Source of the DNA: Polyangiaceae bacterium
GTDB lineage: Bacteria > Myxococcota_A > Polyangia > Polyangiales > Polyangiaceae
Direction of reading: 5' to 3'
NCBI GenBank assembly: GCA_016715885.1
Contig: JADJXL010000022.1
Location: forward strand, 139,588 to 203,587
DNA length: 64,000 bases
In this document: positions 1,926 through 58,253 of the stretch, piece after piece
Numbering within the stretch: position 1 is the first letter of the stretch
Layout of the letters: every line of letters begins with the position of its first letter
Translations under genes and position numbers: made by a program
Notes under the pieces: model-generated
The model's input: only the letters and a program-made list of their open reading frames with translations
The model's database searches: none
What the model was told of the DNA's origin: nothing

Positions 1926-1987
1926 GCTCACTTCGATGCTTGCAATGAAGGATGTGTGCCCCGTTTCGACGAACGCGGCATGGAGGA

Positions 1988-11700: not shown

Positions 11701-13645
11701 TTTCCGCGGCGCCTCGGAGAAGTTTGTCCCGCTCATCCTCGATTGTCGATCCAGGCGAATCGAGCTCGAGCAAGCGGTTGGCCGCTTCGGTGAGCACGAG
11801 TGCTGCACGCGTTCCTGGTTGCATCGATTGCGATAGCTCGGAAAGGATCGTCGCGGCTTCTGTCGGCTCGGCACTCGCCGCGGCTGCGCGGGCCGCTGCT
11901 TCGTGCGCGGAATCCGCTGCTCGTGCACGCGCGTAGCTTTCGTTTGCGAGTTTCGTGTTGCCCGCGAGCTCGGCGAGCAGTGCTGCTGCCAGCGCGCCGT
12001 CGCGGTCACCTTCGGCTTGCTCTCCACGCCATCCTGCGACTGCGTTGGCAATCTTGGCGCCCGCTTTTCCTTCGAGGTCGAGCTCGAGCGTGAGCGCACG
12101 ACCCGTTCCACTCTCGGGAACGAACTCCGTGTAACCAAGGATCGATGCTGCGAGCGCATCGTTCGACGTGAGGGGTTTGTCGTCGGCACGAAGCGCACCG
12201 AGAGCGCGACCAAGAGCCGCGCCGGCGCGAGCTGCCGTAGCACCGGCTCCGATGAGGTTCGTCGACGGGTTCTCGAGATCCCGCGTCACGGCGCTCGAAG
12301 CTGCAAGGAGCGGGATGAGATCGTCATCGCCCGCGGCTGCTTCGACGGCTTGTTCGAACACTTCGCGCGAGCCGCCCGTGAGGGCCGTGAGTGCAAGTCG
12401 ATCGCCCGCAGAGAACGCGATCGTGTCGCTGCCTTCGATCGCCGAGCGGGCTGCCTGCGCATCACCGAGCTCGATGGCGCGTGCTGCGAGCGCACGGCGC
12501 GCATCGGCGTCGTGTGTACCGTCGAGAGCTCCACGCAAGGCTTCGATCGCGTTGCCTCGCGTTTCCTTTCGTGCTGCCGCAAGCATGCTCGCGAGCCATC
12601 CCGCGCCGCCCTTGAGCGACGCGGCACTCTGCAATCGACCGAGCGTGGCGACGGCGGACGACACGTCGCCACTTTCGAGTGCTGCGCGCGCTCGGAGCAG
12701 CGCGTCGTACGTGGACACGACGTTGCGTACGCCGCGAGGAGCGTTGCCGCGATGGATGGACACCTTGGAGAAGGCGTCACGCAAGGCTGACAGGTCCTTC
12801 GTTTCCGGCGCGCGAACTTTCGTGAACGCGCTCGGATCCGTTGCATCTCCAAGCGCTTCGGTGAAGCGCTGCACGAAGGGACGCGGATCTGCCGCGTCCA
12901 CGCGCTGCGCAACGTCGAGCCGCTTCTTGGCGCCGTCGTCGTCCTCGAGCCGAACGCGAGCGATATCGGAGCCGAGCATCGCGGCGTGCGCGCGCGCTGC
13001 GTTCGTCGGCAAAACGCGCGCTTCGCTGTCGAGCACTTCGAGTGCACCTTGCCAGTCTTGGTCCCGCATGAGCAGGCCGCGAAGCTGATGGTGAGCAAGC
13101 GGCGAGCTTGGTGCGAGCGTGCGCACTTCGGCAGCAATGGCCCGGGCTGTTTGCTCTTCGCCAGCCATTGCATACAGCTCGCACACGGCCACGAGAGCTC
13201 GTGCGCGCGCCGCCTTGTCCTCGATGGCCTCGGCTTCCGCTCGAAGCCACGCAGCGCGTTCTGCCCACGCATCGCGTTGTTGCGTGCCGACCAGATGCGC
13301 CGACGCGTCCTGTTCGTCCGGGAACGATGGAGCGGCGTCCACTGCCTTGCGTTCGGGACGCGATGCAGGAGCTTCTTCTTCGATGAGATCGGCCCCATCG
13401 ATGGTTTCCTCGTCCGCCGCCATGCTCGCGTCCGCCGCAAGGAGCGCTTCGACCACGCCATCGGGCTGACGCATCGTCGTCTCTTCCTCGATGGCGTCGG
13501 CCTCGACTTCGGACGAACCTTCTTCGGCGGGCGGCGCACGCAACGCGCCGAGCAGCTCATCGGGTACTCGAGCCAATAGGGTCGCTTCGTTGTCGTCGTC
13601 GTCAGCAACGTTTGCGATGTCGAAATCGTCTTGGTGATCGCTCAC
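8720..13645 (-). CDS. Giant TPR-repeat protein (about 1640 aa) with an acidic N-terminal region and a C-terminal non-TPR domain of about 250 aa.
   Basis: A long ORF with pervasive TPR-like helical repeats rich in A, L, E and R. The proposed GTG start at 13645 lies 31 nt after the upstream stop and is preceded by GGAGCAAAGGA. The C-terminal domain is paralogous to that of the upstream giant TPR protein. Confidence 0.65.
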   Translation of the reverse strand: MSDHQDDFDIANVADDDDNEATLLARVPDELLGALRAPPAEEGSSEVEADAIEEETTMRQPDGVVEALLAADASMAADEETIDGADLIEEEAPASRPERKAVDAAPSFPDEQDASAHLVGTQQRDAWAERAAWLRAEAEAIEDKAARARALVAVCELYAMAGEEQTARAIAAEVRTLAPSSPLAHHQLRGLLMRDQDWQGALEVLDSEARVLPTNAARAHAAMLGSDIARVRLEDDDGAKKRLDVAQRVDAADPRPFVQRFTEALGDATDPSAFTKVRAPETKDLSALRDAFSKVSIHRGNAPRGVRNVVSTYDALLRARAALESGDVSSAVATLGRLQSAASLKGGAGWLASMLAAARKETRGNAIEALRGALDGTHDADARRALAARAIELGDAQAARSAIEGSDTIAFSAGDRLALTALTGGSREVFEQAVEAAAGDDDLIPLLAASSAVTRDLENPSTNLIGAGATAARAGAALGRALGALRADDKPLTSNDALAASILGYTEFVPESGTGRALTLELDLEGKAGAKIANAVAGWRGEQAEGDRDGALAAALLAELAGNTKLANESYARARAADSAHEAAARAAAASAEPTEAATILSELSQSMQPGTRAALVLTEAANRLLELDSPGSTIEDERDKLLRGAAEMDPHMPLSIHIGEGIARSAGDRDGLIEWLHARRESCEDPIEQARDYLREALITPEGAGHATGLLTHALKARPDDIGLRELFERLSPERPSDRAAFRAERAAASTGAEAARCALDAALEYERDGDLANASVMAKQATLAGENLLAPLCVYRTALAGHGTGELVESLLAHAKATEDPTERLETYERLAELDEVGRNDPGNALLWRRAILEGAPSHLPTLRRIASTLIIAGRDEELEPVVFATAKTLEGPEAIAHAQLAARLRLRLRGWDDTREAVDVAYKNQPRGIWALRQTAAHARAGGDEALALEVDVELAARTERSSEVSTLSLRAAESAERTGNLEKARELLDKAIEATPSHFVLHLERARVLEALGNFADAAESYEAAAQTSITPEERVQGLYKAAVLFADKANDSERARGAFEHVFSTDPSYRDVFQRLKDVYVATNARAELAALLERRLETITDPAERVDMEIMRGRALADIGDAGAAKRALAAALEQYPDHVEALSAFAEVSAKEEDWEGAEQAWIRLARLVSEPERQSDLYLRLGELYDGPLPNAERAELSYQEVLKRFPDNEAAREKLVELYKKTGDTAKALEQQTILINNVEDPEAKCRRTTGLASIYEAMGDTKKAEQTLLQARKTWPKDDTALHALASFYQRTDQAQAANVLLERAVADARRALGTGRFEPYLFSTVATVAELRGKPAQARIARASVAALDGAEVEINGAGEAAGDATLDDLLAPDIMTPAFRDLLQRTGSLLDSAVTFDIASVRGMPLPPPQAELADEIKSIARAYGIGDVKIYQSAALGAVCVPASSHPATIVLGQPLVASENAAVRTFLIHRALKVIQTNASAFSRTAPIDLWPLLAAYLKALNTAFSPQGVDPAKLADASAKIAKAMPANVDPQVRTLATDVIGSIGNRASTLNTAINGWGARAGLLAVGDPNVALAGIAWAGGHTNQPPASGKERLTWIGRNAEARELIVFSVSDAYSDARSRLGLD

Positions 13646-13676: not shown

Positions 13677-16600
13677 TCACCGGACGCCCATGCCGAGCTT
13701 CTTGCGAAGCTCGAGATAGTTGGGCGAAAGCACGAACGAAAGCAGGCGCCGACCGCGCTCACTCTCGGGGATGGTCGAACCAAGCTGATCCCTCGGAATT
13801 CCGAGCAGATCACTCAGGACGATCGAAACATCGCCAGCGGCGATCACCGCCATGCGATCGAGGCTGCGCCGCGCAGCAGCAGCCCAAGCGCGCGCATCTT
13901 GCTTGCTGGAGACGATCTTCAAACACGTCTCCCCAATGCTCTTGCGCACTTTGCGCGAGATCTCTTTGTGCACCGCGCGCTGGATCTCGTTGTAGACCGC
14001 ATAACCGGGGTTGGCGATCTTGATGTCGACCTCGTTGCACGCCGCAATCACGACCGACGCGAGCGCCACTTCGTCGCGCGTTCGCAGCGAAATGATGCCG
14101 CGGCGCAACGCGAATACCGTACGCGCCACGGCCGAACGTGCGGCCGCATCGAAGGGCGCCGCAATCGCCGAACCCAGCACGATCGCTGGGACGTCTCCCG
14201 CAACTCCGCTCACGAGGTTTGGATTCGGACCGCCCACGTACAACTCGAAATCACCCTCGAACCCAACGGCTCCCATCCACTCGGCAACGGCAAGACGTAG
14301 CGGATGACCACCACGCGAATCGATACGCTCCTTCTTGCCTACGCCGAGCGTGCTGAGTGTCGGGCCAAGCGCGAGCGATACGGTCTCGGCCATCTGCACG
14401 AGCAGCTCGGCAATCGGACCACCATCTTCCGGATCGGCAATCTCCGCCATCGCCCTCGCGTCGAGCACGATCTGCGGACGAGCCGCCACGCGTGTGTCGA
14501 GTTTCTTGAGCTCCGATGAGATTGTCGTGTTGGAACGACCGAGTGAAACGAGGCATCCGAGCGTCGCCTGTCGCAACGCCAAGTCCTGCTCGAACTGCGC
14601 AATCTTCGCGAGCCGCTCGACCCGATCCGCATCGCAAGGATCCTCGGCGAGCTTGTTCAAGAGCACCGCCTTGGCGCGGCCGAGTAGGCGCTTCTGTAGC
14701 GACGCGTCGTAGTTGGTGGTCAGCACCATGTCGAGCGCTTCGCCGTCGTCGTTCGACTCGTCGAGCAGCTTCGTCACGGCCGCTTCTGCCTTCAGCGGTT
14801 CCTTGATCTTGTCCCGCCAGATGGCCATCGCGAGCCGCGCAGCCTCCATGCGACCTTCGCGCTTCTCACGCTCTTGCATGAGCTGTTCGAGGATCGCCGT
14901 CGCGCGTGACCACGCACCGGTGCGCGCTGCCACGCGTGCAAGACGTTCACGCACCGGAGGCGTGGACAAACCTGCTTCGTGCAGCCCAACGAGCACGTTG
15001 AGTGCCTTGTCCGGCGCGTTCAGCTTGTTCTCGTAAATGTCCACCGCCGCGACACCGGACATGAGCCGCTGCTGCGTCGGCGCTTCCTTGATCCTCGAGA
15101 GCCGCCCGAGATAATCCGCGGCGTCGCCGAACTTGCCCATCGTGATCGCAATCTCGCCCGACAGCGCGAGTGCGCCGACGTGATCGGGCTCGATCATCGT
15201 GACGTTCTCGAGTGCCGACAACGCTCCTTCGCGATCTCCCTTCTTGCGAAGCACGCGAGCGCGTTCCCAGAACAGCTTGCTGATCTCGACCTCGTCGTCG
15301 GCTACGTCGAGACGGCGGCTCATGATCTCGAGCAGCCGGTCGTCCTCGTTCCGCGCACGAACGCGTCGGAAAAGTTTGTCGAACGCAACCGATCGGCTCG
15401 GATCACGCTCGAATGCACGCGCAAACGAAATCTCGGCGTCGTCGTGCGCTTCGGTGTGCTCGAGCAAAATGAGACCGGCTCTCTCCCAGAATTCGGCGCC
15501 GCGAGCGTCATTGCTGCAGAGCGCGCCGAGCTGCGCGTAGGCGAGCGCCGTCGAGATGTGATCACCGAGCGCCTCGCTTGCCGAACGCACGCCTTCCCAC
15601 GACACGAGGTCATCGGGACGCCGTTCGACGGCAGCGCGGAACGTGGCCAATGCCGCTTCCGTGTTGCCCGATGCAAGCTCGGACCAACCCGCCAAGGCCG
15701 CTGCATCGTTCGAAGCGTCTTCGCCCAACGCTTCGCCAACGTTTTTCAAGGCAAACGCTCGGCGCCGCGGATCGCAACCCGGCAATGACAGGTCCAGGTT
15801 CGTCAAGCGCGTCTTCGCGGACGTACCGGCAAGCAGCGGTTGCGGCATGCTCGGCTGATCCAGCGTTGCCACGATCGACGCGGACGACTCCATCGCAGCC
15901 CAGGGTTCGTCCCCAAGGAACGACGCCACCGCACGCCGCGCAGACACCTCGGCTTCACGATCCTTCGCCGCAAGTGCAGCGCCGAGCCATTCCAGCGCCA
16001 CGTACAGCTTCGGTTCCGCACTGGCCCACGACGCCGCGCGACCCACCGTCGCCGCAACGTCCTGATCGATCGTCCGCGCGATGCGGAATCGTTCCGCACG
16101 CGCGATGGCCGTCGCTTCGTCACCCTGATCCTCGAGGCGATCGAGCGCTCGTTCGATCGCTTCTCGATCCGTCAGCGCATCCGGCCAGCAAAGCCGAGCC
16201 AAACCCGCCGCGACCGTGATGTCGCCCGAACCATCCGCTTCGGCGCGTTCGAGTGCGACGAGCGCTTCGCCGCGATCACCCGCTTCGCCCGAACCAATTT
16301 CCAAACCAAATCGCTCGAGCGCAATGCTCGCCGGATCCGCACCCGTTTCGAGCGCTGTTGCGAGCGCGCGGCGACGACCGTCGAGACTGTCGGGATCGGC
16401 TCCGCGCAGCGCCCACGCAAGCACCGCCGAAGCCGCCTTTGCAGCACTGCCGCGAGCTTGCTCGAGCAGGTCCAGCGTCTTGGCTCGATCACCGAGTCGC
16501 CACGAGAGAAGCGCAGCCTCGATGTAGAGCGCTGCGCCCAAGTCGATGTCGTCGGTTGCCGTTGCACATGCGGCGAGCACCGTGGACGCGGCCGCGAGGT

Positions 16601-18443
16601 TCTCCCCGCGCTGTTCGAGATCCGCGAGGAATATCGCGACGACCTCGTCTCCCGGTGCAGCTTCGTGAAGCTCCCGCAACCGAGCGCGCGCACGTTCGAT
16701 GTCGCCCGTTCGAGCGCTACGAAGCGCCGCGACGACCCACAAGCCACGCGCCAAGTTCGCGTCCGATTCGACGCTCGCCAGCGCTTCGATCGTCTCGGGC
16801 GTCGCACGATACGCAGCTTCGCCCGGCGCCGTTTTCTTGATGCCCAGCGCGTACGCCCCGAGCACTCGACCAAGCCAGCTCGAACCCGTGTCACCGTCGC
16901 TTTCGAGCGCTGCGAGCTTGGCAAAAGCTTCGCCGGCACCCGCTACGTCACCACGCAGCGAACGGCTGCGGCCCACCTCGAACCACAAGCTCGCAACCTC
17001 GCCAGGTTCCGCACCAGCCGCGAGGAGATCCGCCGTTGCTTGCTCGTACCACGCGCTGTCCTTGCGAATCGACGCAAGCATGCGGGCAACCCGCGCGATC
17101 ACGGCAGGGTTCGTCCCGAGCGTTGCGGCTCGCGCGAGCGCTGCTTTGGCCGCATCCGTGTCGCTCGCATTCGACGCCCACACGTATGCAGCAACGAGCG
17201 CCGCGCGAATCTTGCTGTCATTCGTCGGGCAAACTTCACCCGCCGCTTCGAGCGACTTGGCGAGCGCCGAAGGATCTTGCGCATCGCTCAAAAGATCGAG
17301 CTCGAGCGCACGAGCCATGATGGACGCAGGGTCCGCTTCGAGCGCGCTACGCAGAGCCGCGAGCGCACCGTCTCGATCGTTGTCGAGCATGGCGGCTTCG
17401 GCAATACGCAGCCAAAGCGCTGCCGCACCGGGACCCACTGCGCCTCGGTCGAGCTCTTCTCGTGCAAGCGCTGCCGCACCCTTCGCATCGCCCATCGTTT
17501 CCAGCGACGACAAACGCGCTCGAGCAATGACGGACGACTGCGGAAGTTGCTCGGCAGCACGCGCAAGCAGCTTTACCCACGCATCGTGATCTCCTGCCCG
17601 ACGCTTGATCTCCGCACATCGCAGCCACGCATCCGCTGCGCACTCGGGCCGCCGTGCCCATCGCGGAACGCCATTCGCATCTCCGCGTTCGGGTTCGGCA
17701 ATCGCCTCTTCGATGAGCTCCGCTTGGCCTTCGAGGGCACGCGACAGAACGGACGCGTTTTGATCTCGGATCGCGATGGCTTCGAGCGCCTGTTGCGAAC
17801 GGAATCGGCCGTGGCCTTCGAGCGCTGCGGCGGAATCGATGAGATCGTAACCTCGTTGCGCGTCACCCGACTTCGCAGCGAGCTCCGCAAGCTCGATGAA
17901 AAGAAACGCTTTCCACGTGGCGTCCGTCGCAAGCTCCGCCCGCGCTTCGATGGCGCGCATCCGTCCGGCGAGGTCGTTTTCTTTCGCCGCAAGCAGCTCC
18001 AGCTCGAGCCACGGCGTCGGATCCTCGGGATTGGCACTGACGGCTTCTTCGAGCGCCTCTTTCGCCCCTGCAAGATCTTGCTCGTAATCCTGCAAGTACG
18101 CGGCTCGCTCCCAAAACGCGCGCGTGCGTTCCTCCGGCGTCGCCGCTGCGCGCGTGAGCGCGTCGAGCAGCTTGCCCAGGTTTTTGATGGACTTGCGTCG
18201 GGTCAAGATCCGAACGAGCGCCTCGAGCGGCTCACGGAACTGAGGGTCGGCATTGAAGGCCGCGAGATAATCGCGGGCCGCCGCCGGCTCTTCTCCATGC
18301 CGTTCTTCCAGCACGCCGCTTTCGTGAAGAAGCAAGGCCTGTAACGCCTTGTCCTCCTGTGCGGCGGTCTCGGATCGTAGTCGGTTGAGCAAGGCCGCCG
18401 CATCCTCGGCGGGCCCCGTGGGGGTGGATGTCTCTACCGTCAT
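13677..18443 (-). CDS. Giant TPR-repeat protein (about 1590 aa), paralogous in architecture to the downstream gene.
   Basis: A long ORF with TPR-like repeats throughout. The C-terminal about 250 aa (ELYVGGPNPNLVSGVAGDVPAIVLGSAIAAP...) aligns with the C-terminus of the 8720-13645 protein. The start is placed at the ATG at 18443 and is uncertain. Confidence 0.65.
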   Translation of the reverse strand: MTVETSTPTGPAEDAAALLNRLRSETAAQEDKALQALLLHESGVLEERHGEEPAAARDYLAAFNADPQFREPLEALVRILTRRKSIKNLGKLLDALTRAAATPEERTRAFWERAAYLQDYEQDLAGAKEALEEAVSANPEDPTPWLELELLAAKENDLAGRMRAIEARAELATDATWKAFLFIELAELAAKSGDAQRGYDLIDSAAALEGHGRFRSQQALEAIAIRDQNASVLSRALEGQAELIEEAIAEPERGDANGVPRWARRPECAADAWLRCAEIKRRAGDHDAWVKLLARAAEQLPQSSVIARARLSSLETMGDAKGAAALAREELDRGAVGPGAAALWLRIAEAAMLDNDRDGALAALRSALEADPASIMARALELDLLSDAQDPSALAKSLEAAGEVCPTNDSKIRAALVAAYVWASNASDTDAAKAALARAATLGTNPAVIARVARMLASIRKDSAWYEQATADLLAAGAEPGEVASLWFEVGRSRSLRGDVAGAGEAFAKLAALESDGDTGSSWLGRVLGAYALGIKKTAPGEAAYRATPETIEALASVESDANLARGLWVVAALRSARTGDIERARARLRELHEAAPGDEVVAIFLADLEQRGENLAAASTVLAACATATDDIDLGAALYIEAALLSWRLGDRAKTLDLLEQARGSAAKAASAVLAWALRGADPDSLDGRRRALATALETGADPASIALERFGLEIGSGEAGDRGEALVALERAEADGSGDITVAAGLARLCWPDALTDREAIERALDRLEDQGDEATAIARAERFRIARTIDQDVAATVGRAASWASAEPKLYVALEWLGAALAAKDREAEVSARRAVASFLGDEPWAAMESSASIVATLDQPSMPQPLLAGTSAKTRLTNLDLSLPGCDPRRRAFALKNVGEALGEDASNDAAALAGWSELASGNTEAALATFRAAVERRPDDLVSWEGVRSASEALGDHISTALAYAQLGALCSNDARGAEFWERAGLILLEHTEAHDDAEISFARAFERDPSRSVAFDKLFRRVRARNEDDRLLEIMSRRLDVADDEVEISKLFWERARVLRKKGDREGALSALENVTMIEPDHVGALALSGEIAITMGKFGDAADYLGRLSRIKEAPTQQRLMSGVAAVDIYENKLNAPDKALNVLVGLHEAGLSTPPVRERLARVAARTGAWSRATAILEQLMQEREKREGRMEAARLAMAIWRDKIKEPLKAEAAVTKLLDESNDDGEALDMVLTTNYDASLQKRLLGRAKAVLLNKLAEDPCDADRVERLAKIAQFEQDLALRQATLGCLVSLGRSNTTISSELKKLDTRVAARPQIVLDARAMAEIADPEDGGPIAELLVQMAETVSLALGPTLSTLGVGKKERIDSRGGHPLRLAVAEWMGAVGFEGDFELYVGGPNPNLVSGVAGDVPAIVLGSAIAAPFDAAARSAVARTVFALRRGIISLRTRDEVALASVVIAACNEVDIKIANPGYAVYNEIQRAVHKEISRKVRKSIGETCLKIVSSKQDARAWAAAARRSLDRMAVIAAGDVSIVLSDLLGIPRDQLGSTIPESERGRRLLSFVLSPNYLELRKKLGMGVR

Positions 18444-18591: not shown

Positions 18592-19194
18592 TCACTCGAT
18601 CCGCTGAACGATCCAATACCCTCGCGGCGTGTCCACAGGCTCGCTCACGCCACCCTTCGGTAGACTGAACAGCACGTATTCCGGCGCGGGTTCGAGCACT
18701 CCGCGCGGCAGCCGTCCGGCATTTTCCATCGACCCCTTGTCGCCTTTGGCCACGGCCGCCTTGAAGTCGGTCTTGGCAAGCTCGGCGAGCTCCTTCGCGA
18801 GCTCCAGCGCAGCCTCGCGAGAACGCGCAGTCGCCGGCACCCGAGCCGCACCAGGCGCCCCTTGCGCCCCGCGATACGTCACGAGAACGACGCCGAACAC
18901 CACGGACTTCGGCGCATCCGCCGCCAAACCTGGCGGCGCTTCACCCGATAACAAGAGCGTTCCACCAGCATCTGCTTGCTGCGCCGGATCGATCTCGCCC
19001 GATGGTTCTGCCGCCGTGTCGGCGTCCGTTGTCGCTGCATCCAGATCGACGACGTCCGCATCGGATGCGTCCGACGCGCCCGCGTCTGCTGCTACCGAGC
19101 CCACGGATGCCCCACGACGATCCGCGGGGAAAATCACGAGCGCAAGAGCCCCGAGCACCAGCGTGGCGAAGAAGAGGGCGGTCCATTTCTGCAT
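18592..19194 (-). CDS. PpiC/parvulin-type peptidyl-prolyl cis-trans isomerase with an N-terminal membrane anchor.
   Basis: There is an N-terminal TM helix (WTALFFATLVLGALALVIF). The C-terminal parvulin signature is PRGYWIVQRIE, preceded by a SurA/PrsA-like helical segment. Confidence 0.6.
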   Translation of the reverse strand: MQKWTALFFATLVLGALALVIFPADRRGASVGSVAADAGASDASDADVVDLDAATTDADTAAEPSGEIDPAQQADAGGTLLLSGEAPPGLAADAPKSVVFGVVLVTYRGAQGAPGAARVPATARSREAALELAKELAELAKTDFKAAVAKGDKGSMENAGRLPRGVLEPAPEYVLFSLPKGGVSEPVDTPRGYWIVQRIE

Positions 19195-19427
19195 GTGGCC
19201 GAGCGCGTTAGCACATTTCTCACGATGCGCGAAAGCGCAGCACGACATGCTCCCCACATCCTGGCCCCAACAGCGTCGCAAAAGAGCAATGCGCCCAAAA
19301 CCCTGATAGAAGGGGAAGAAGAATTTCAGACGATAGGTGCCTCATCCCGTGCCGAGCTCTTGTCGATCCTGGTGCATCGACGTCGCGCAAGGGCTGATGC
19401 GCCGTTCTCTTCATTCAGGGCGCGAGC

Positions 19428-22400
19428 ATGATCAACGTCCAGTGCGACGGATGTAAATCTCCCTACCAGGTCGATGAGCGGCGAGTCCCCGCATCGGGGC
19501 TCAAAATGCGTTGCTCCAAGTGCGGCAACTCGATCTTGGTGGAGAAGCCGACGGTGGATCTTGCGGGACGGAGCGATCTGCCCGTCCCCGCGTCACCACG
19601 ACCGAAGGGCGTCGCGCCCGTTTTTCCTCGCGGCCCGGTCCTTCCCAAACAAGGCCTTCCAACGCCCAAAGCCGTGGTTCCAACGACGCCGGAAAAAGCT
19701 GCGCTCGCTTTCGCGCGCGGCGAAGGCAGTCGTTTCGACATCCCCGCGATGGATGATGACGCTCTCGCCGAGCTCGATCTGCCGTCGCCCGCAACGTTGG
19801 TTTCAAAAGAAAAACCCGTTGCAGTCGCGATGGATCCGCTTGCGGACGAAGGCATTCGCGCATCCGACCGACCTACGGCTCCGCGCGCCGTCGATGAAGC
19901 AAGCGTGTTCGATCGAATCACGAGCGACGACCATCGCAGGCCGTCCGAACGACCAACGGCCCCGCACCTTCCCGCCGTTGCCGTTCCCAAAACGAGCGTC
20001 ACCAAAGCTGCCGAGCGTGATGTCGACGTGCCGCCTCGAGGCAAAGCCACGGTGCGCCAAATGGCTGCGGTGATACCCGATGAAATGGCCCTCGATCTGC
20101 CTGCGCTCGCGCCGTCACGCGACGCCATCGCTCCTCCATTGCCGCAACCCAATCGTTCGGCCGCGGAGCTTTCTGCCGCTGGGACAAACCCGTCGGCACG
20201 CGACGCGAACAAGGCCGAGCTTCCATCTCCCGCGCGCCCACCAGCAAAACGCACGCTCGAGATCGACCTTCCGGATACAGGGCTGCCCATCGACGAAGCA
20301 GCAATGGCCTTCGGCGAAATCGACCTGCCTGCCACCGTGCCTGCGCATGCAGGAGCCAAGGGCTTTGGCGCGATCGGCTTGGCCGCTCCCGCGCCGCCTC
20401 GTGAACCGGCCAAGTCGTTCGGAGAAATCGATCTTCCCGCGGTCCCTGCACCTTCGCCATCCAAGTCCCCGGCTCCGGCGATGAAATCCCGCCCGGGCAA
20501 CGCCGATCTACCCGTTCTGAGCGACGCGGCATTCGGCGAAATCGACCTACCTGTTCCCGACGTTGCGACGTCCGACGACGGCGGGTTTGGCGAATTCGAA
20601 CTTCCTGCTCCCGAAGCCGACGCGTCCTTCGGCAAGCTCGATCTTCCGCTTCCGGTCGGACAGAGCGGCGAACATCAGTTCCCGCCTGCAGCCAAACCAG
20701 CGACGACCGCCAGCGCTGTCGCCGCGTTTTCCGTGCTTGGCGACCTCGAGCTGCCGCTGACGAGTGAATCGTCGATGAACCTCAGCGCGGTCGTGCTGCC
20801 GCCATCCAAGCCGGCAAGTCCTGCGCTCGACTTCGCGCTCGATGAATTGTCGCTGGATGCGCCCGCGTCGAAGCCGAAAGCGCCGAGCGATGCGACGCGG
20901 CAATCCATGCCATCCATACCGGGCGAAGAGTTTTCCCTTGGTGTGCAAACGAATAACACGCCTTCACCGGGGCCGAGCAAGGGCACGGACATCACGGGCG
21001 GTATCGGCGACGAAGTGGAGCTCGGTGTTGGCGATGCCGGTGCAGCGGATGCCGCAGCTCGGAAAGACAAACCTGCCAAAGGTGGTCGTCAAGATGCTGC
21101 GCCCGCTCCTGCAATGAGCCGCAAAGAGCGGTTGCGACGGCGTGCCCTCACCATGGGGATCGCCGTGCTCGTTGCCGTCGGCGGAGGATCCCTCGCGCTC
21201 CTGCCCGACATCGGTCCTTTTGGCATCTATGCCATCACCGACACCATCAAGGCCGATGATCACGCTCGAGCCCTCATGCAGCTCGAAACCAACGTTCAAA
21301 CGATGCTCGACGAGGACACTGCGGGCAGTGCCGCTCGTGCATTGACCACGGCCAAAGCCGCGCAGATCAACTTGCCGCGACATCGAGCGACCGCAGCGTA
21401 TACGGCCTACGTCGCTTTCCTCAGCAGCATTCGCCATGGACCGCGCGCAAGCGACGAGACGTTCGGCAAACAGTTGCTCGAGTTCGTCGCGGATACACCG
21501 AGCCGTGAACGCATGCTCGCGGTCGCGGCGAAACACAAGGCTGCAAACAAGCTCGAAGCCGCCAGGCGCGTTGTCAAAGACGCCGGCGGGCCGCAATCGA
21601 AGGACATCGATACCCTCGCGCTCATCGGGGAGATCGAGCTTGCCGCGGGCATGAAAGAAGACGCGCTCGCCGTGTGGAAACACGCGGTTTCGCTGCGGGA
21701 AAAGAGCGCCAGAGCGCTCTTCGGGCTCGCACGCGCGCAGCATGCCGCCGGTGACTTCAATGCAGCAGAAAAGAACGCTCGCGCAGTCATCGAGGTGTCC
21801 CCCAAACACGCCGGCGCTCGCATTTTACTCGCCACCATCATTGGTCGATTTCCAACCACCGAAGGAGAAGCCATCGCCCTCTTGAGCAAAGTGACGGATC
21901 AAGGCGAAGTGCGCACTGCGACGAGCGAAGGCCAAATCGTGCAAGCCTTCATCGAAGCTGGTCGTATCCATTTGCTCCGTTCACGTGTCTCCGCCGCGGC
22001 CGATGCGTTTGCCGAGGCCCTCAAGATGGATCCGCGCAACGTGCAAGCTCTGATTGGCGACGGCGAGCTCTTCTTCCGATCGGGCCGCAATTCACAAGCC
22101 CTGCTTCGATTCGAAGAAGCCATGCGCGCCGACGATACGAGCATTCCGGCAAAGGTCGGGGCGATCAAAACCCTTCTCGCGCTCGAACGCATGAAGGACG
22201 CCAAGGATCTCGCGAAAAAGATCCGCGAAGCAAAACCTGAATTGTCCATTGGCGCGTATTGGCTCGGCCGCGTCGAAGAAGCGCTTGGCAGCAAAAAAGA
22301 CGCCGAAACGCTCTACCTCGAGGCAATCAAGCTCGGCGGCAGCGATTCGGACATCGTCGATGCCTACGTTTCTCTCGTCGCACTCCTGTCGTCGGTTGGT

Positions 22401-23570
22401 CGAGCTGAAGAGGCGCAAGCCAAACTTGCCGAGGCCAGCGCCAAGTATCCCGACCTCGCCGCACTCCATCGCGCCAAGGGTGAGGTGCTCTCGGAAGCCG
22501 GCCGCTATGCCGAAGCTCGCGCGGAATTCGAGGCAGCTCTTGCAAAAGAGGACGACCTTGGAACACGCTTTCGTCTCGGCGTGACGCTCCGCCGCATGCG
22601 CCTCTTCGAAGAAGCAATGGGCGTGCTCGACAAACTCCAGACCGCCGACAAGGATTATCCGGGCCTGGCGCTCGAACGAGGCATCCTTTATGCAGAAATG
22701 GGGCAAAGCGAACGGGCCCTCGAGATGTACGCCGCAGCGCTCGAAAAAGCGCCCAACGACGTCGACCTCAAGCTCCGCGTAGGATCGACGCAGGTCATTG
22801 CTGGACACCCCGACGAAGCAGAAAAAATCCTACGCGAAGTATTGAAAGATCGGGCCGCGTCCGCAGATGCCAATCACTTCCTCGGTCGGGCCCTGCTTCT
22901 CAAGGGTGGAAGCGCGGCCGAAGCCATTCGGTTTTTGGATCGCGCCACCGAAATCGATGCCAATCGCGCCGAATATTACCTGTACGTTGGCTGGGCTGCG
23001 AACGAGCTCAATCAAGTTCAGCGCGCCGAACAAGCCATCCAACGCGCCCTGGAGCTAGACCGGGAGCTTGCCGACGCTTATTGGCAACGAGCCATTCTCT
23101 ATCACAAACAAGGCCGAACGCTCGATGCGCTCGCGGATCTCCAGGTCGCCCTGGCAAAACGGCCGTCACGCTATGAAGCGTATGCCACGATGGCGCTTTG
23201 TTATCAGGACCAGGCGCGCTGGCCCGATGCAACCGCCGCGTGGATCAAAGCGATCGAGGGCAATGGATCCATCGCGGAATGGCATTATCGCCTGGGCAAA
23301 ATCTACGAAGGCAATGGCAATCGCGCGGCCGCCGCGCCCGAGCTCGACAAAGCCGTCGAGCTCGTCGAGGCGAAACCGAATATGTCGCAATCGTGGCATT
23401 TCGACCTGTATTTCCTTTACGGTGAAACCATGCAAGCCACCGGGCAAAAGGAAAAAGCCCTCAAAGGCTACAAACGATACCTGCAGCTCGCACCCGTCAA
23501 CAATGCCTATCGGCCCGATGCCGAGCGAGCCATCAAACTCCTCGAACCACGGGGCCCTGGGTCACACTGA
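19428..23570 (+). CDS. Protein with an MJ0042-type zinc ribbon, a Pro-rich linker carrying a repeated [F/L]GE[I/L]DLP motif, a single TM helix and a long TPR domain. The architecture resembles GltJ/AgmX.
   Basis: The N-terminus is MINVQCDGCKSPYQVDERRVPASGLKMRCSKCGNS (CxxC..CxxC). About 450 aa of Pro/Ala-rich low-complexity sequence follow, with at least six FGEIDLP-like motifs. A TM helix (LTMGIAVLVAVGGGSLALL) precedes more than 700 aa of TPR repeats. Confidence 0.7.
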   Translation: MINVQCDGCKSPYQVDERRVPASGLKMRCSKCGNSILVEKPTVDLAGRSDLPVPASPRPKGVAPVFPRGPVLPKQGLPTPKAVVPTTPEKAALAFARGEGSRFDIPAMDDDALAELDLPSPATLVSKEKPVAVAMDPLADEGIRASDRPTAPRAVDEASVFDRITSDDHRRPSERPTAPHLPAVAVPKTSVTKAAERDVDVPPRGKATVRQMAAVIPDEMALDLPALAPSRDAIAPPLPQPNRSAAELSAAGTNPSARDANKAELPSPARPPAKRTLEIDLPDTGLPIDEAAMAFGEIDLPATVPAHAGAKGFGAIGLAAPAPPREPAKSFGEIDLPAVPAPSPSKSPAPAMKSRPGNADLPVLSDAAFGEIDLPVPDVATSDDGGFGEFELPAPEADASFGKLDLPLPVGQSGEHQFPPAAKPATTASAVAAFSVLGDLELPLTSESSMNLSAVVLPPSKPASPALDFALDELSLDAPASKPKAPSDATRQSMPSIPGEEFSLGVQTNNTPSPGPSKGTDITGGIGDEVELGVGDAGAADAAARKDKPAKGGRQDAAPAPAMSRKERLRRRALTMGIAVLVAVGGGSLALLPDIGPFGIYAITDTIKADDHARALMQLETNVQTMLDEDTAGSAARALTTAKAAQINLPRHRATAAYTAYVAFLSSIRHGPRASDETFGKQLLEFVADTPSRERMLAVAAKHKAANKLEAARRVVKDAGGPQSKDIDTLALIGEIELAAGMKEDALAVWKHAVSLREKSARALFGLARAQHAAGDFNAAEKNARAVIEVSPKHAGARILLATIIGRFPTTEGEAIALLSKVTDQGEVRTATSEGQIVQAFIEAGRIHLLRSRVSAAADAFAEALKMDPRNVQALIGDGELFFRSGRNSQALLRFEEAMRADDTSIPAKVGAIKTLLALERMKDAKDLAKKIREAKPELSIGAYWLGRVEEALGSKKDAETLYLEAIKLGGSDSDIVDAYVSLVALLSSVGRAEEAQAKLAEASAKYPDLAALHRAKGEVLSEAGRYAEARAEFEAALAKEDDLGTRFRLGVTLRRMRLFEEAMGVLDKLQTADKDYPGLALERGILYAEMGQSERALEMYAAALEKAPNDVDLKLRVGSTQVIAGHPDEAEKILREVLKDRAASADANHFLGRALLLKGGSAAEAIRFLDRATEIDANRAEYYLYVGWAANELNQVQRAEQAIQRALELDRELADAYWQRAILYHKQGRTLDALADLQVALAKRPSRYEAYATMALCYQDQARWPDATAAWIKAIEGNGSIAEWHYRLGKIYEGNGNRAAAAPELDKAVELVEAKPNMSQSWHFDLYFLYGETMQATGQKEKALKGYKRYLQLAPVNNAYRPDAERAIKLLEPRGPGSH

Positions 23571-27285: not shown

Positions 27286-29366
27286 GGGCGACCTCCTTGA
27301 CCCACGATCCGCACGAGAAGCCGATCTTGTTCGAGCTTCAGCCCCGCATCCGACGTTTTCCCTTCGCCCCCATCGAGCTGCGCCAAAAGTACCGGCACAT
27401 CCTCCGGGAACCAATTCACGACCCCTCCGGCACTCTCTTCAATCGCTTGCCATGCCGCGCTGAGGCCCGCAGCATCATCATCGACGATTCTTTCGAGCGA
27501 CGAAGCGCGTAGCGGCTGCATCGTCAGCGACCCCGACCGACCTACCGTTGCCGTCACGCTCGTTAACCAAGCTCGGCCCGGTTTCGTGCTGCCGACGTCT
27601 TGACCGGCGCTCGCCAATACTCGCTCGCCGTCACGAATGGTCGCAAAATAGCGAGCATTTCCGCCGGGCAGCATCAACAGCGCAGCGCGCATGTCACGAC
27701 CGGAACGATTGATGACCGCTGTATCCGTTTCATTCTCCGTCACGATGGCAATGCCTTCACCAAGGTCGGCAAACCCATCCTCGCGAATGACCACGGTTTG
27801 CCATGGCAATGCGGCTACATCGACCAAACGCGCCCCATCACGATCGACCACCAAGTGATCGTTGATCGTCGCCGGCGCCGAGACGAATGCCGTATTCACG
27901 ACCGATGTCGAATCGCTCGTGCGCACCGTGAGATCCTTGGCCCTCGGCGTAAAGAACCCTCGCCACCTGCGCGCCGTACCTTTCGACATTCCCGCGCCTG
28001 CTTCGACCAGCGTGAGGTGTCGTGACCGGCCACTGACACCCTTGGCCACGAACCCAATCACGACGATCGCGAAGAACGTGACGGCGGCAAAAATCGGGAG
28101 CCAAATCAGCGCTCGCAAAGGTTTGCCCTTATTGGCATTCAGCGTGAAATTGATGGGAGCCGCAATCACCGCGTACGCAAGGAGCAAAAGAGCTGCAACC
28201 GCAATGGCCCAGCGCGATCCCTCGTTCGGGTCCAATTGCTTGCGAATACCGTCCGACGAATACCCTGCCGGCGTCGACCCTTGACGATAAATGATCGTGC
28301 TACGCCGATCGAAAGCCCGACGCGCCATATCGAGCACGCGTCCCTGCACCCACGGATCGTCGACTGCGGGTTTGCGCGTCGGGTCGAATGCGAGCAAGTG
28401 AAATTCACCGAGCCCGTAATACGCCGACGCCCCATAACGACTACCGCGCAAATTGCCCCCGGAAAAACCCACGAGCGACTTGCCCACTTCTTCCTCGGCC
28501 GACTCCGCAAAAGGAATCTTCTTCGCGGCATTCGACGGCGCGATGGGCAGCCGCAATTCACGCAACGTCTCCGAATGCACGGACGCCATCGTGACGTCTC
28601 CCCCCGCAAACGCAGCCACCACCGGACTCCGAACATCCTCCGGTCGCGCCAATGCAACCGCCAGCGTGCCGCCGGCCAGGACAAACCCACTCAGCGCATC
28701 GAGCTCCACCGCCGTCACGCGCGACAGCACATCCGAGCGAATGAGCACGGCCGACGCAGGTGCATACAGCGCCGCTCGATCCGGAAGAACGGGATCACCC
28801 GTCGCAGGATCGAATCGCGGCGATCCAACCTGAAGCTGCGGACCCGAACCATACGAAGGCACGCTGCCCCAAGGCGCGTATTGCGGCGAAATCCAAGCTT
28901 CGTGCATCACTCCGCGAAGACGCGAAGCCTCGGTCACGTCGAGCAAAAACACGCCGGGCGAATTCGTCACGGTCGCCCCGAGCGTGCCTAGCTCGATGCC
29001 CGCGTCGTTACGCACCACGATCTTCACGTCACCATACACGTTCGCATGCGCTGGCAACCGCACCATCGCCGCAGCGCCCGCGCCAACGACGAAAGGCGCC
29101 GTCGCTCGATATCGAAATTGGTTTGAGTACAAACGGCTTTCGAGCTCGACTTCGCCGCGCACGGGCTGCTGCTCGTTGTTCTGCACGCGCACCAGGAACC
29201 CGCTGTAACCTTGCGGGACCGGCGCTGCGGCGCCGAACATCTGCGTGATGTCGACGGCGACTTGCGGCGCTCCTTGCTGAGGCACCTGTTCAATCGATGT
29301 GGCGGACGCCGTTGAAGCCAGAACGATGCCCGCCGTTAGACTCGACGCAAAAACAAAAGACTTCAT
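27282..29366 (-). CDS. Exported protein with a signal peptide and C-proximal TM helices. It may be an ABC-transporter auxiliary (GldG-like) or BatD-like component.
   Basis: The signal peptide is MKSFVFASSLTAGIVLASTASA. Two TM helices lie around residues 380-440. The start overlaps the MoxR stop (ATGA). The function is unknown. Confidence 0.5.
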   Translation of the reverse strand: MKSFVFASSLTAGIVLASTASATSIEQVPQQGAPQVAVDITQMFGAAAPVPQGYSGFLVRVQNNEQQPVRGEVELESRLYSNQFRYRATAPFVVGAGAAAMVRLPAHANVYGDVKIVVRNDAGIELGTLGATVTNSPGVFLLDVTEASRLRGVMHEAWISPQYAPWGSVPSYGSGPQLQVGSPRFDPATGDPVLPDRAALYAPASAVLIRSDVLSRVTAVELDALSGFVLAGGTLAVALARPEDVRSPVVAAFAGGDVTMASVHSETLRELRLPIAPSNAAKKIPFAESAEEEVGKSLVGFSGGNLRGSRYGASAYYGLGEFHLLAFDPTRKPAVDDPWVQGRVLDMARRAFDRRSTIIYRQGSTPAGYSSDGIRKQLDPNEGSRWAIAVAALLLLAYAVIAAPINFTLNANKGKPLRALIWLPIFAAVTFFAIVVIGFVAKGVSGRSRHLTLVEAGAGMSKGTARRWRGFFTPRAKDLTVRTSDSTSVVNTAFVSAPATINDHLVVDRDGARLVDVAALPWQTVVIREDGFADLGEGIAIVTENETDTAVINRSGRDMRAALLMLPGGNARYFATIRDGERVLASAGQDVGSTKPGRAWLTSVTATVGRSGSLTMQPLRASSLERIVDDDAAGLSAAWQAIEESAGGVVNWFPEDVPVLLAQLDGGEGKTSDAGLKLEQDRLLVRIVGQGGRP

Positions 29367-30388
29367 CGACGCATCGCCTGCTCGACGTTCTCCGGACGCG
29401 TGGGCACGTTCTTCACGAGCTCTTCGACGACCTGATCGGTCGTGATTCCATCCGCTTCACCCTCGAACGAACGGATGAGCCGATGCCGCAGCACGGGCTT
29501 GGCCACGCGCTGCACGTCAGCAAACGACACGTGCGCTCGCCCTTCGAGCAAACTCACGGCCTTCGATGCCAACACGAGCGACTGTGCGCCACGCACGCCG
29601 GCTCCATAGCGAATCGCTCGACGCACGAGGTCCGGCGCGCCGCTCATCGATGGATCGCTCGCTCGCACGAGGCGCGATGCGAACCGCATGATGGGCTCTG
29701 CAACGGCGACGTCTCGACACGCCGATCGCAACTCGAGCACTTCGTCTCGATTGAGCACCGGGTTGGGCGCGTCTTTCGGCTGACCCGTCGTTCGCACGAG
29801 GATCTCGGTCATCTCGTCTTCGTCGGGACTCGGAACGATTACTTTGAGCAGAAAACGATCGAGCTGCGCTTCGGGCAAAGGGTACGTGCCCTCCATCTCG
29901 ATGGGATTTTCCGTCGCGAGCACGAAAAACGGCTGCTCCATTGCATGACGTACGCCACCGATGGTGCACGCGTGCTCTTGCATCGCTTCGAGCAGCGAGC
30001 TTTGCGTCTTCGGCGTCGCGCGGTTGATTTCGTCCGCGAGCACGATCTGTCCGAACACGGGCCCTTTGTGCAGCGCGAAGTGGCGACTTCCATCGGCTGC
30101 CGTCACCAGAATGTTCGTGCCCGTAACATCGCTCGGCATCAGATCCGGCGTGAACTGGATGCGCGAAAACTTCAGCTCCAGCGCGCTCGCAATCGTGCGC
30201 ACCAGCAGGGTTTTTCCCAGGCCCGGCGCACCCTCGAGCAGCACGTGGCCGCCCGACAGGATGCCCCAAAGCACCTGCTCGACGACCTCTTCTTGTCCCA
30301 CGATCACTTGCCCGATCGTTTCCTTGAGTCGATTGCTCGCCTCGCGCGCCCGATCGAGGCGCTTTTGAAAATCACCAGCGCTCGTCAT
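29363..30388 (-). CDS. MoxR-family AAA+ ATPase.
   Basis: Walker A is LLEGAPGLGKT. Walker B is VLADEINRATPKTQSSLLEAMQE. The length of about 340 aa is typical of MoxR proteins. Confidence 0.85.
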   Translation of the reverse strand: MTSAGDFQKRLDRAREASNRLKETIGQVIVGQEEVVEQVLWGILSGGHVLLEGAPGLGKTLLVRTIASALELKFSRIQFTPDLMPSDVTGTNILVTAADGSRHFALHKGPVFGQIVLADEINRATPKTQSSLLEAMQEHACTIGGVRHAMEQPFFVLATENPIEMEGTYPLPEAQLDRFLLKVIVPSPDEDEMTEILVRTTGQPKDAPNPVLNRDEVLELRSACRDVAVAEPIMRFASRLVRASDPSMSGAPDLVRRAIRYGAGVRGAQSLVLASKAVSLLEGRAHVSFADVQRVAKPVLRHRLIRSFEGEADGITTDQVVEELVKNVPTRPENVEQAMRR

Positions 30389-32265: not shown

Positions 32266-32422
32266 CGTGGTCTTCTTTGTACTCGGTGACCGCCCGGAGC
32301 GCTACCGGGTTGCCCTGGATCGAACAGCAATCTTTCAGCGGTCTCTGCACACCAAACGTTGCATCGAATCGGTCTTGTGCGTGGTAGGCTCGCGCGCAGC
32401 GTTCAAAGCGCCGGCTCATCGC

Positions 32423-35400: not shown

Positions 35401-35890
35401 TTTGCGGCGTATTCGTCAGCTCGCCCGGTCACGTTCGAATGTGGTGCGGACGCAAGCGGCCCGGCTTTTTCAGGCGGCATCGAAGAATTATTCGCCCGTC
35501 GCCATGGACGTATTGTCGGAATGGCTCGAAGCTGCGCGCGCCGAAGAGCTCGAGGCGGTGTCGGCGCTGCTCGAAGAAGCTCCCGCGTCGCTACTTTTCT
35601 CGCACGTGAATCTCGTGGCGACACTCTTGCGAAATAGCCACGCATTGGGAGGCGCTCTTTTCGATACCGTGCAAAATGCACTCTTGCCCGTTGCGATGGG
35701 GCAGGGGCGAATGCGTGGGAACGGGCCCCAAATGACCGATGCAGCGCTTCGCACGCAAGCGCGTGAGGCCGCGGCAAAACTCGCACCCCGTTCGCCCGAA
35801 CGCCGATTTTTCGAGGCCATCGTGAAACACACCGAAACGCTCATCGCCGAGGAAACTGCGGCCGAGCACGACGACCTCTTCGACCTGTAA
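32423..35890 (+). CDS. STAND-type P-loop NTPase fused to HEAT/ARM-like repeats.
   Basis: Walker A is VVVLVGRAGSGKTSLL. Walker B is VIVIDDAHR. The C-terminal two-thirds is a helical repeat region with HEAT-like units (GHPDGFVRRAALGVLRTLA). The start is placed at the ATG at 32423. Confidence 0.6.
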   Translation: MDTHVGFPSPVDATTEHGVVLGRPNEFVDVALAAGRYFQDALPIVGRTEELQTLVNFIETPGTARVVVLVGRAGSGKTSLLAALAETLSQRNVTQAVRFAADVASVAAQHAPRLPKGPSVIVIDDAHRKPCTAALLHAAQHRPEVAFVLTTRPGGLSRLVALCAERGLSEADIRVLPEIGPLSTDDAERSARHVLDEEFGAHAKQLATISAGHPQLVSIAGRLVREKALHPVALEQPADFGARVLARGYETLLMRASVTPDQKLFGGVLGQVTDMLGIVAALAPVRTSDERFLQGAGELLGCRRRDLVSALRALETTGIIERSAPGARVVPTALADHALLRLLTAPLPLPGTLAERVSVIVRHFGIHALVPLFRNLGEMDGPSIPPGSASKFVAELFEYCRDALDVASTMDRCRLLSSLREVCIDEPAGMLELVEFALQLPPLTDTAPKSRVLLSETSVTNELSPILQRIALHRQHLPEAVDSLWALGRDDVRLQSPHPDHPMRVLREFASRAHTLPVGFHEALLDAVERWQMVPHAHDHQHSPLDVIDTFLAESDAPISDDALASRQRRLRTRALESLARAAGSSNRRAALAGVRGLEGVLTDMATHSSAGFPEADWRDGERLEVIEMLRKTATSAADPVVHFAVADVLRWAAHRTPNDTICIAAELALADVPDSSERRLYEALTQRPPAQRAGLDLDAPPSSRLLPETRNNEPRGAETARIVIDEWMAKGPLPAAFVQQTAEALDTLSLAGKSGSPRVLLQVLSLKHPEAAAKACEVIMQSPDGPLGPHVAALLHTLRESAPERAAGLVQNIVTGSNATLCASLAQAFPRWVDKPRNGDREALRALLGHPDGFVRRAALGVLRTLAKTAPHDAVALAVEVDLSEGAEAVETLFGALDGGKLFVGDALSVEEIVAFLSRLSAATNLEGHSTIRFLHFAGKRLPEETALLLIERIERLVGPGVLAIENFVALPSEGLGSILARLPESPEWVAILRRIRQLARSRSNVVRTQAARLFQAASKNYSPVAMDVLSEWLEAARAEELEAVSALLEEAPASLLFSHVNLVATLLRNSHALGGALFDTVQNALLPVAMGQGRMRGNGPQMTDAALRTQAREAAAKLAPRSPERRFFEAIVKHTETLIAEETAAEHDDLFDL

Positions 35891-48443: not shown

Positions 48444-48466
48444 TTCCCACCGAAGTTCGTCCCTAC

Positions 48467-56215: not shown

Positions 56216-58253
<2,038 letters not shown>

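Follow-up and report, generated by a model that had tools for sequence, protein, structure and literature searches.

A stretch of 64,000 nucleotides from a Polyangiaceae bacterium (assembly GCA_016715885.1, contig JADJXL010000022.1, positions 139,588 to 203,587), hereafter the window, encodes a bitopic protein in which the short peptide FGEIDLP recurs between an N-terminal zinc ribbon (ZnR) and a transmembrane (TM) helix. The locus raises the question of whether this repetition is more than a by-product of a Pro- and Ala-rich linker and, if so, what reads it. The array is a conserved, multi-copy short linear motif in the membrane-tethered, cytoplasmic, disordered linker of an envelope protein with the architecture ZnR-TM-TPR. 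The motif is under selection at the peptide level and is specific to the ZnR-linker-TM-TPR family. The parts of the protein are located as follows.

19428..23570, plus strand: gene of the ZnR - disordered linker - TM - TPR protein, 1380 residues, from the translation of the open reading frame (ORF)
19437..19544, plus strand: MJ0042-type zinc ribbon, residues 4-39, CxxC-x19-CxxC, net basic, from Pfam, TIGR02098, PDB, AlphaFold2 and Foldseek
19545..21143, plus strand: cytoplasmic, intrinsically disordered linker, residues 40-572 (~530 residues), from AlphaFold2 confidence, composition and charge
21144..21203, plus strand: single TM helix, residues 573-592 (20 residues), with flanks of +5 on the N-side and -2 on the C-side
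21495..23507, plus strand: periplasmic TPR region, about residues 690-1360, within the ~780 residues beyond the TM helix, from Pfam and NCBIfam

The protein has a 99% identical counterpart of 1380 residues, P0001, in the same 90%-identity cluster as MBK9264551.1, which is annotated as 'zinc-ribbon domain-containing protein' and comes from a Polyangiaceae metagenome-assembled genome. Pfam and NCBIfam give zero matches between residues 40 and 690, leaving the linker without any family model. The linker contains 15% Pro and 17% Ala and carries a net charge of -18, with -15 in the motif-bearing part. AlphaFold2, supplied with an 87-sequence alignment for residues 1-460, gives the zinc ribbon a predicted local distance difference test (pLDDT) score of 92 and leaves residues 41-460 all below ~50-55; the linker is thus predicted to be disordered. 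Over two runs (residues 1-460 and 1-135) the score of the zinc ribbon is 87-92. By the positive-inside rule, the charges of the TM flanks place the zinc ribbon and the linker in the cytoplasm and the TPR part in the periplasm. An earlier note, made from the letters of the window alone, had put the array in a predicted cytoplasmic, low-complexity linker between the zinc ribbon and the TM helix; this location is confirmed, and the cytoplasmic side and the disordered state are supported.

The copies of the motif, all on the plus strand, are listed below with the residue at which each begins.

19764-19784, plus strand: half-motif LAELDLP, residue 113; relatives have a full [FL]G[ED][IL]DLP at the same position
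20082-20102, plus strand: half-motif EMALDLP, residue 219
20253-20273, plus strand: half-motif TLEIDLP, residue 276
20310-20330, plus strand: FGEIDLP, residue 295
20364-20384, plus strand: FGAIGLA, a decayed copy, residue 313; orthologue P0011 has FGVIDLP at the same place
20418-20438, plus strand: FGEIDLP, residue 331
20532-20552, plus strand: FGEIDLP, residue 369
20586-20606, plus strand: FGEFELP, residue 387
20628-20648, plus strand: FGKLDLP, residue 401
20736-20756, plus strand: LGDLELP-L, residue 437, the last copy, which is present family-wide

The array extends over nt 19764-20756 and comprises five exact copies of FGx[ILF][DE]LP, one LGDLELP, one decayed FGAIGLA and three half-motifs of the form x-h-DLP. 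The eight strings quoted in the earlier note all lie within 19760-20780, and its count of at least six copies is a fair one; EMALDLP and LGDLELP had been overlooked. An example of a 15-20-residue peptide centred on one motif copy is AKSFGEIDLPAVPAP. The spacing is partly regular: a distance of 18 residues recurs (295, 313, 331; 369, 387), and distances of 14-24 residues are common across the family.

Chance does not produce such an array from the composition of the linker. Residues 41-571 were shuffled 100,000 times, and none of the shuffles reached the observed motif counts. The pattern FGx[h][DE]LP occurred on average 0.0003 times per shuffle, with a maximum of 1, against 5 observed, and the shorter h[DE]LP occurred 0.19 times, with a maximum of 4, against 9 observed. 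Tandem Repeats Finder found no DNA repeat in the linker, and synonymous codons vary from one motif copy to another. The lack of a tandem repeat at the DNA level together with the differing codons indicates that the repetition is maintained at the level of the peptide.

Conservation across the family leads to the same motif. The family, collected by a search with the whole protein, consists of ZnR-linker-TM-TPR proteins of Polyangium, Sorangium, Chondromyces, Byssovorax, Minicystis and uncultured relatives, and 120 listed members were counted. None of the 120 lacks FGx[h][DE]LP. With the broader pattern [FLMIVWY]Gx[ILFVM][DE]L[PAS], counted before the TM helix, 41 members have a single copy and no member has more than 10. 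What every member retains is the last copy, mostly FG[DE][IL][DE]LPL. When the 27 closest sequences are aligned, the per-residue conservation profile shows the motifs as conserved islands amid a drifting linker. The two conditions under which the earlier note would have given up its motif array, a lack of conservation in orthologues and a random frequency in Pro-rich regions, thus both come out in favour of the array.

The consensus is (G/S)-F-G-E-[I/V/L]-D-L-P-[A/S/L]-[P/V/A], and it is recovered both with an h[DE]LP anchor (697 instances) and with the FG dipeptide alone as anchor (895 instances, of which 44% continue as x-h-[DE]-L-P). The column frequencies with the h[DE]LP anchor are F 57%, G 64%, E 51%, I 44%, V 25% or L 22%, and D 88%, followed by L, P, A/S/L and P/V/A. 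With this anchor L and P reach 100% by construction; with the FG anchor alone they are 64% and 55%. The density of the motif is 11.4 per 1000 residues in the linkers versus 0.04 in the TPR parts. The element shows these properties of an ELM-type short linear motif: 3-10 residues with a few fixed positions, a disordered site, and conservation in orthologues with diverging flanks.

Outside the family the motif is practically absent. In six frames of the window it is confined to the ZnR-TM-TPR gene. Six-frame translation of 86 loci, 85 of them fetched from other Myxococcota genomes and metagenomes, gave 1.37 million residues with one out-of-frame occurrence outside family genes, and no FGxhDLP was found in real genes of 80 gltJ loci of Myxococcia. 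A scan of metagenomes with a DNA pattern for two FGEIDLP copies 4-14 residues apart returned two hits, both N-terminal zinc-ribbon proteins of the same family, in keeping with the co-occurrence of motif and zinc ribbon that the earlier note had proposed to look for. Other routes were less productive. A phmmer search with linker residues 270-450 against 1.84 billion representatives gave six hits only, family fragments and a spurious AHNAK-like eukaryotic repeat protein, P0125; low complexity restricts such a search. Word-index searches with the GltJ ZnR peptide and with a synthetic concatemer of the motif returned short fragments only and did not reveal other architectures.

The earlier note did not recognise the motif as a described one. 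A literature search for the motif strings likewise found no description, and the linker is without a model in Pfam and NCBIfam. The consensus patterns of clamp-binding, SSB-tip, FtsZ C-terminal peptide, EVH1 and clathrin-box motifs were rejected because their fixed positions do not fit. The FGEIDLP motif and the system around it are thus undescribed so far, and a multivalent motif array in a ZnR-linker bitopic protein is of a known kind, from GltJ and from eukaryotic and pathogen examples.

Such examples include the FPPPP repeats of ActA with the EVH1 domain of Ena/VASP, W-acidic motifs with the TPR of kinesin light chain, FG-nucleoporins with karyopherin solenoids, and the acidic repeats of HubP/FimV. 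In these arrays short hydrophobic-acidic peptides, repeated as they are here in disordered and often membrane-anchored segments, recruit partners by avidity. Readers of the TPR or alpha-solenoid type are known for motif arrays. FGEIDLP differs from all of these in sequence; it fits, for example, none of [FLWY]PxhP, LxW[DE] or FxFG/GLFG. With FG-nucleoporin repeats it has in common an FG in a disordered region, but it carries a fixed acidic x-h-D-L-P tail, unlike GLFG and FxFG.

The linkers of the family hold other conserved elements. In the present protein these are SDLPVP just after the ZnR, ATVRQM, GEEFSLG, IGDEVEL, and RKDK before the TM helix.

19572-19589, 20046-20063, 20922-20942, 21003-21023 and 21060-21071: conserved linker islands other than FGEIDLP

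In relatives the ATVRQM island appears as [KR]PTVRQM, up to three times, immediately behind a DLPxPA. The linker tether probably carries several distinct motifs. The Minicystis-like proteins P0082, P0085 and P0034 have, behind the FGEIDLP array, a second repeat G-L-P-M/S-P-A in up to about 10 copies (e.g. HGGGLPMPA), and the distant members P0111 and P0120 use GGGLDLPSPR. The protein of the window has neither of these.

The N-terminal zinc ribbon connects the protein with GltJ (AgmX) of Myxococcus xanthus and ZitP of Caulobacter crescentus. It scores 40.0 bits with Pfam Zn_ribbon_4 (PF13717; cutoff 30.3) and 29.8 bits with TIGR02098 (cutoff 20.9). Its four Cys are invariant in 87 sequences, its net charge is +3, and its surface residues are conserved family-wide, with Y13, E17, R19 and P21 invariant and K26, R28 and K31 conserved in at least 90%. 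The best sequence match in PDB is 7ZOK, the ZnR of GltJ/AgmX (E=3.4e-6), followed by 2NB9 (ZitP), and Foldseek with the zinc-ribbon model places 2NB9 at the top with probability 1.00. The protein is nevertheless not GltJ itself: NF033761 gives 24.2 bits against a cutoff of 450, with the match limited to ZnR residues 5-40.

The likeness to GltJ goes beyond the homologous MJ0042-type zinc ribbon. Both proteins have a disordered acidic linker with a discrete motif, a single TM helix and a periplasmic C-terminal part, and each gene has as neighbours one or more giant cytoplasmic TPR proteins whose C-terminal ends are weakly similar (GltI in the case of GltJ). The differences are equally distinct. 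GltJ has a GYF domain between linker and TM helix, part of a ZnR-linker-GYF switch in the Agl-Glt gliding machine, whereas here Pfam gives no GYF hit at E<=1 and AlphaFold2 shows no fold within residues 41-460. The periplasmic domain is TonB-CTD-like in GltJ and TPR here; GltJ is encoded in the glt G1 cluster and the window gene has no glt neighbours; and the linker of GltJ has one motif copy, EDEIGAVFDQVL, in place of an FGEIDLP array.

The single motif in the disordered linker of GltJ (L86-T107) binds its own ZnR and, competitively, MglA-GTP (PMC11135422). We fetched gltJ loci from 80 Myxococcia genomes and read GltJ in 10 of them; its linker motif reads LFTDVEEDEIGAVFDQVLSSGT (also as EDEIGAVFDQVL, with L86-T107 being LFTDVEEDEIGAVFDQVL) and is acidic-hydrophobic, unlike FGEIDLP. 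The idea that FGEIDLP is the counterpart of this MglA/ZnR-binding motif was rejected, as the sequences are dissimilar, and the window protein contains no similar segment. ZitP is a bitopic zinc-finger polarity protein that binds PopZ (PMC5182065, PMC5182063), and PopZ is not known in Myxococcota (PMC11135422). As in the present protein, a ZnR of this fold stands at the N-terminus of ZitP, and a linker and a TM helix lead from it to a periplasmic domain; ZitP differs in its short linker, the lack of a motif array and a periplasmic domain that is not TPR (PMC5182065, PMC5182063).

Candidates for a reader are found on the other side of the gene. The ZnR gene is divergent from a minus-strand operon of three genes.

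19195..19427, intergenic: divergent region of 233 nt common to the ZnR gene and the operon of the peptidyl-prolyl isomerase-like protein and the giants
18592..19194, minus strand: TM-anchored parvulin-like protein, the most constant family neighbour and a candidate part of the system
13677..18443, minus strand: giant B, ~1590 residues, cytoplasmic, TPR-like, with a GltI-like C-terminal end; candidate reader
8720..about 13645, minus strand: giant A, ~1640 residues, cytoplasmic, TPR-like; its N-terminus is acidic and disordered, its C-terminal end GltI-like; candidate reader

Both giants give TPR hits and have acidic N-termini with no hydrophobic leader and no signal peptide. The same block adjoins the family gene in Polyangium mundeleinium, Sorangium and Minicystis rosea; the downstream genes differ among Polyangium, Sorangium, Minicystis and the window genome. 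Giant B is 80% identical to its Polyangium orthologue and 63% to that of Sorangium. The ZnR protein is less conserved, with about 56% identity over 80% of its length. The earlier note had named the adjacent TPR giants and MglA-like GTPases as candidate readers encoded nearby and had also thought of GYF and SH3 domains. The giants stand as candidates on circumstantial grounds (synteny and the GltI-like end). As for the others, Pfam detects no MglA-like GTPase, MglB, GYF or SH3 in the 30 of 44 window ORFs scanned. The 10-kb flanks of four relatives contain no MglA, MglB, GYF or related gene either.

In giant A, residues 75-92 (window 13538-13591, minus strand) form a conserved amphipathic island, NEATLLARVPDELLGALR, amid a divergent acidic disordered N-terminus. 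Its versions are AATIMAHVPDELMQSLR in Polyangium, EATLLAKIPEELIQSIR in Sorangium and EQTVLAKIPDELLAEAR in Minicystis. The island resembles acidic amphipathic ligands of MJ0042-type zinc ribbons such as the GltJ linker motif; the N-terminus of PopZ is another ligand of this kind. Judged by this resemblance, it could be a ligand of the neighbouring protein's ZnR.

The parvulin-like protein is anchored by an N-terminal TM helix and contains a spacer that is acidic and of low complexity; its Pfam hits are weak (31 bits). Both histidines of the parvulin dual-His motif appear replaced (VVLV; GYWIV), which makes isomerase activity improbable; from its sequence the protein is probably not an active isomerase. 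All of the five orthologues are more positively charged behind the TM helix than ahead of it, and this distribution leans to a cytoplasmic parvulin domain, with the topology being ambiguous. In relatives a 98-residue PHA_gran_rgn (PF09650) gene lies between the giant B gene and the parvulin gene (L081 8914-9210, L082 8733-9029, L084 8896-9192, L085 9037-9333); by tblastn it is absent from the window. Its protein holds V-E-I-D-L-P-F-L-L, with the same EIDLP core as the linker motif, possibly a coincidence in a folded domain.

The last ~100 residues of the two giants (window 8720-9050 and 13677-14000, minus strand) match the C-terminus of M. xanthus GltI (AgmK) in an in-register alignment that runs to the very end, with the common pattern RAGLLAxG[DE] ... 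RELLVFxxS..LR..G. Smith-Waterman comparison of the giants with the GltI C-terminus gives Z of 7-8, none of 1000 shuffles reaching the score, and the C-terminal ends of the giants are the best matches when the GltI C-terminus is compared with about 55 proteins. A PDB sequence search with the C-terminus of giant B gave no match. GltI is reported to be a cytoplasmic scaffold with multiple predicted sites for the GltG-FHA and GltJ-GYF domains (PMC11761067). Like GltI (3822 residues), giants A and B are cytoplasmic TPR-like solenoids with a similar C-terminus, each encoded beside a ZnR-bitopic protein; they differ in being below half the length of GltI and two paralogues, and the similarity is weak. 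The Smith-Waterman and hhalign comparisons make the link of the giants to GltI suggestive.

We consider the chance about even that the motif array is a multivalent docking array with the giants as its leading candidate reader. Each motif copy would be a low-affinity docking site, and the array of copies would give avidity for a cytoplasmic partner. The leading candidates for this partner are the two ~1600-residue TPR-like giants, whose many repeat units may each take one peptide; through the ZnR protein, a cytoplasmic scaffold would in that case be linked with a periplasmic TPR module, which formally resembles the arrangement of GltI and GltG/GltJ in the gliding machine of Myxococcus. Two points make the giants the most likely reader: TPR/solenoid arrays are a natural multivalent counterpart, and there is the parallel with GltI/GltJ. 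They are candidates at all because of the conserved synteny in Polyangium, Sorangium and Minicystis and the GltI-like C-terminal end. Several observations weigh against the giants. The distant member P0120 keeps parvulin-like and PHA_gran_rgn neighbours and has no giants within 10 kb. Upstream of P0124 there is no parvulin-like gene, PHA_gran_rgn gene or giant, on a 7,968-bp contig that ends just past the gene. Sorangium has both giants and a single exact motif copy; thus the copy number of the motif does not track the presence of the giants. As for GltI, the hhalign comparison, over 372 columns, has P=0.004 but a probability of 8.5%, a hidden Markov model of the GltI C-terminal domain searched against the giants with hmmsearch is negative after bias correction, and Pfam finds no family for the C-terminal domain of GltI or of the giants. 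A more far-reaching form of the docking proposal, which is unlikely though tenable, takes the FG-acidic array as the membrane-tethered ligand of paired GltI-like alpha-solenoid giants that, with the periplasmic TPR and the parvulin-like protein, would make up an envelope-spanning machine that has so far gone unrecognised in Polyangiaceae, one that would be distantly paralogous to the cytoplasmic platform of the Agl-Glt focal adhesion in Myxococcus. In such a machine many weak peptide-solenoid contacts would organise the scaffold at the inner membrane, as a bacterial counterpart of FG-repeat/karyopherin or W-acidic/kinesin light chain TPR recognition.

Other explanations of the array would dispense with the giants. 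The motifs may be ligands of the protein's own MJ0042-type ZnR, either in cis as an autoinhibitory switch like that of GltJ or in trans, where one ZnR and n ligands per molecule would lead to branched self-clustering at the membrane. The homology of the ZnR to those of GltJ (7ZOK) and ZitP speaks for this, as do the binding of an acidic-hydrophobic linker motif by the GltJ ZnR in competition with MglA-GTP (PMC11135422), the contrast between a ZnR of net +3 with conserved surface residues and a motif region of net -15, and the fact that motif arrays are met only together with this ZnR. However, the motif of GltJ, LFTDVEEDEIGAVFDQVL, is unlike FGEIDLP, one ZnR cannot account for up to ten ligands unless the binding is intermolecular, and neither of the two AlphaFold2 runs, made without a GltJ positive control, docked a motif on the ZnR: the ZnR folds confidently, every motif stays below a pLDDT of 50-59, and no strand or helix is added. 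We therefore regard this as unlikely. Alternatively, the array would recruit a soluble regulator whose gene lies elsewhere in the genome, for instance MglA-GTP, another small GTPase or a polarity factor. The earlier note had already suggested a small GTPase, and there is a precedent in the GltJ linker, which binds MglA-GTP and belongs to the same ZnR-plus-linker architecture; but the MglA-binding sequence of GltJ is unrelated, the gltJ loci of Myxococcia lack FGxhDLP in real genes, and neither the scanned ORFs of the window nor the flanks of the relatives offer MglA, MglB or GYF. This explanation is quite unlikely.

The motif may also have no specific partner. It would then be the conserved core of an old ~18-residue tandem repeat that tunes the length, stiffness and charge of the tether or the self-association of FG/Leu stickers, in line with the recurring 18-residue spacing (14-24 residues in the family), with recent perfect 17-residue duplications in some relatives, P0026 among them, and with a copy number as labile as 1 to 10. 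Yet the spacers drift around seven specific positions that stay conserved, every member has kept one copy, and a purely physical role would not call for F-G-E-I-D-L-P, a sequence that other Pro-rich regions lack, so that this explanation is very unlikely. The Leu-Pro bonds, invariant in the motif, could also be read by the parvulin-like protein, acting as an isomerase switch or, if inactive, as a peptide-binding module. The core D-L-P-x-P, the preference of E. coli Par10 for Leu-Pro substrates, the constancy of the gene, which is kept even without adjacent giants, and the charges of the five orthologues, which would put the parvulin domain in the cytoplasm, favour such a role. N-terminally anchored parvulins such as PpiD, on the other hand, are periplasmic; with an ambiguous topology the domain may face the TPR part and not the linker. 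The apparent replacement of both histidines and the weak Pfam hits count against it as well, and we think it highly improbable.

Bacterial cell biology has only rarely brought well-defined short linear motifs to light, and for few of them is the reader known. FGEIDLP is sharply defined, family-specific and multi-copy, and its host protein has the zinc-ribbon-plus-linker logic of GltJ; suggestive sequence similarity would also make it, like GltJ, a neighbour of GltI-like giant scaffolds. The gliding and cell-envelope machineries of Polyangiaceae are poorly understood. Finding the reader would define a new peptide-recognition code and expose an uncharacterised, strongly conserved envelope-spanning system of Polyangiaceae (Sorangium, Polyangium, Chondromyces, Minicystis). 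The motif offers a direct experimental handle for this through peptide pull-downs and GS-substitution alleles.

Some other genes of the window were also noted. A MoxR-type AAA ATPase gene (29363-30388, minus strand) and, apart from it, DUF58, BatA/VWA and VWA/GATase1-like genes (45474-51598, plus strand) together correspond to a Bat/aerotolerance-like operon whose parts lie in two places. A 1207-residue ORF (32267-35890, plus strand) has an N-terminal STAND/NACHT-type nucleoside triphosphatase signature, from weak hits, and no other recognised domain. A secreted fungalysin (M36) metallopeptidase of 1464 residues with PA, MAM-like and PKD domains is encoded at 1952-6346 on the plus strand. The enolase ORF (56216-57769, minus strand), taken from its first start codon, has ~96 residues ahead of the Enolase_N domain; its start is probably over-called rather than a real extension.

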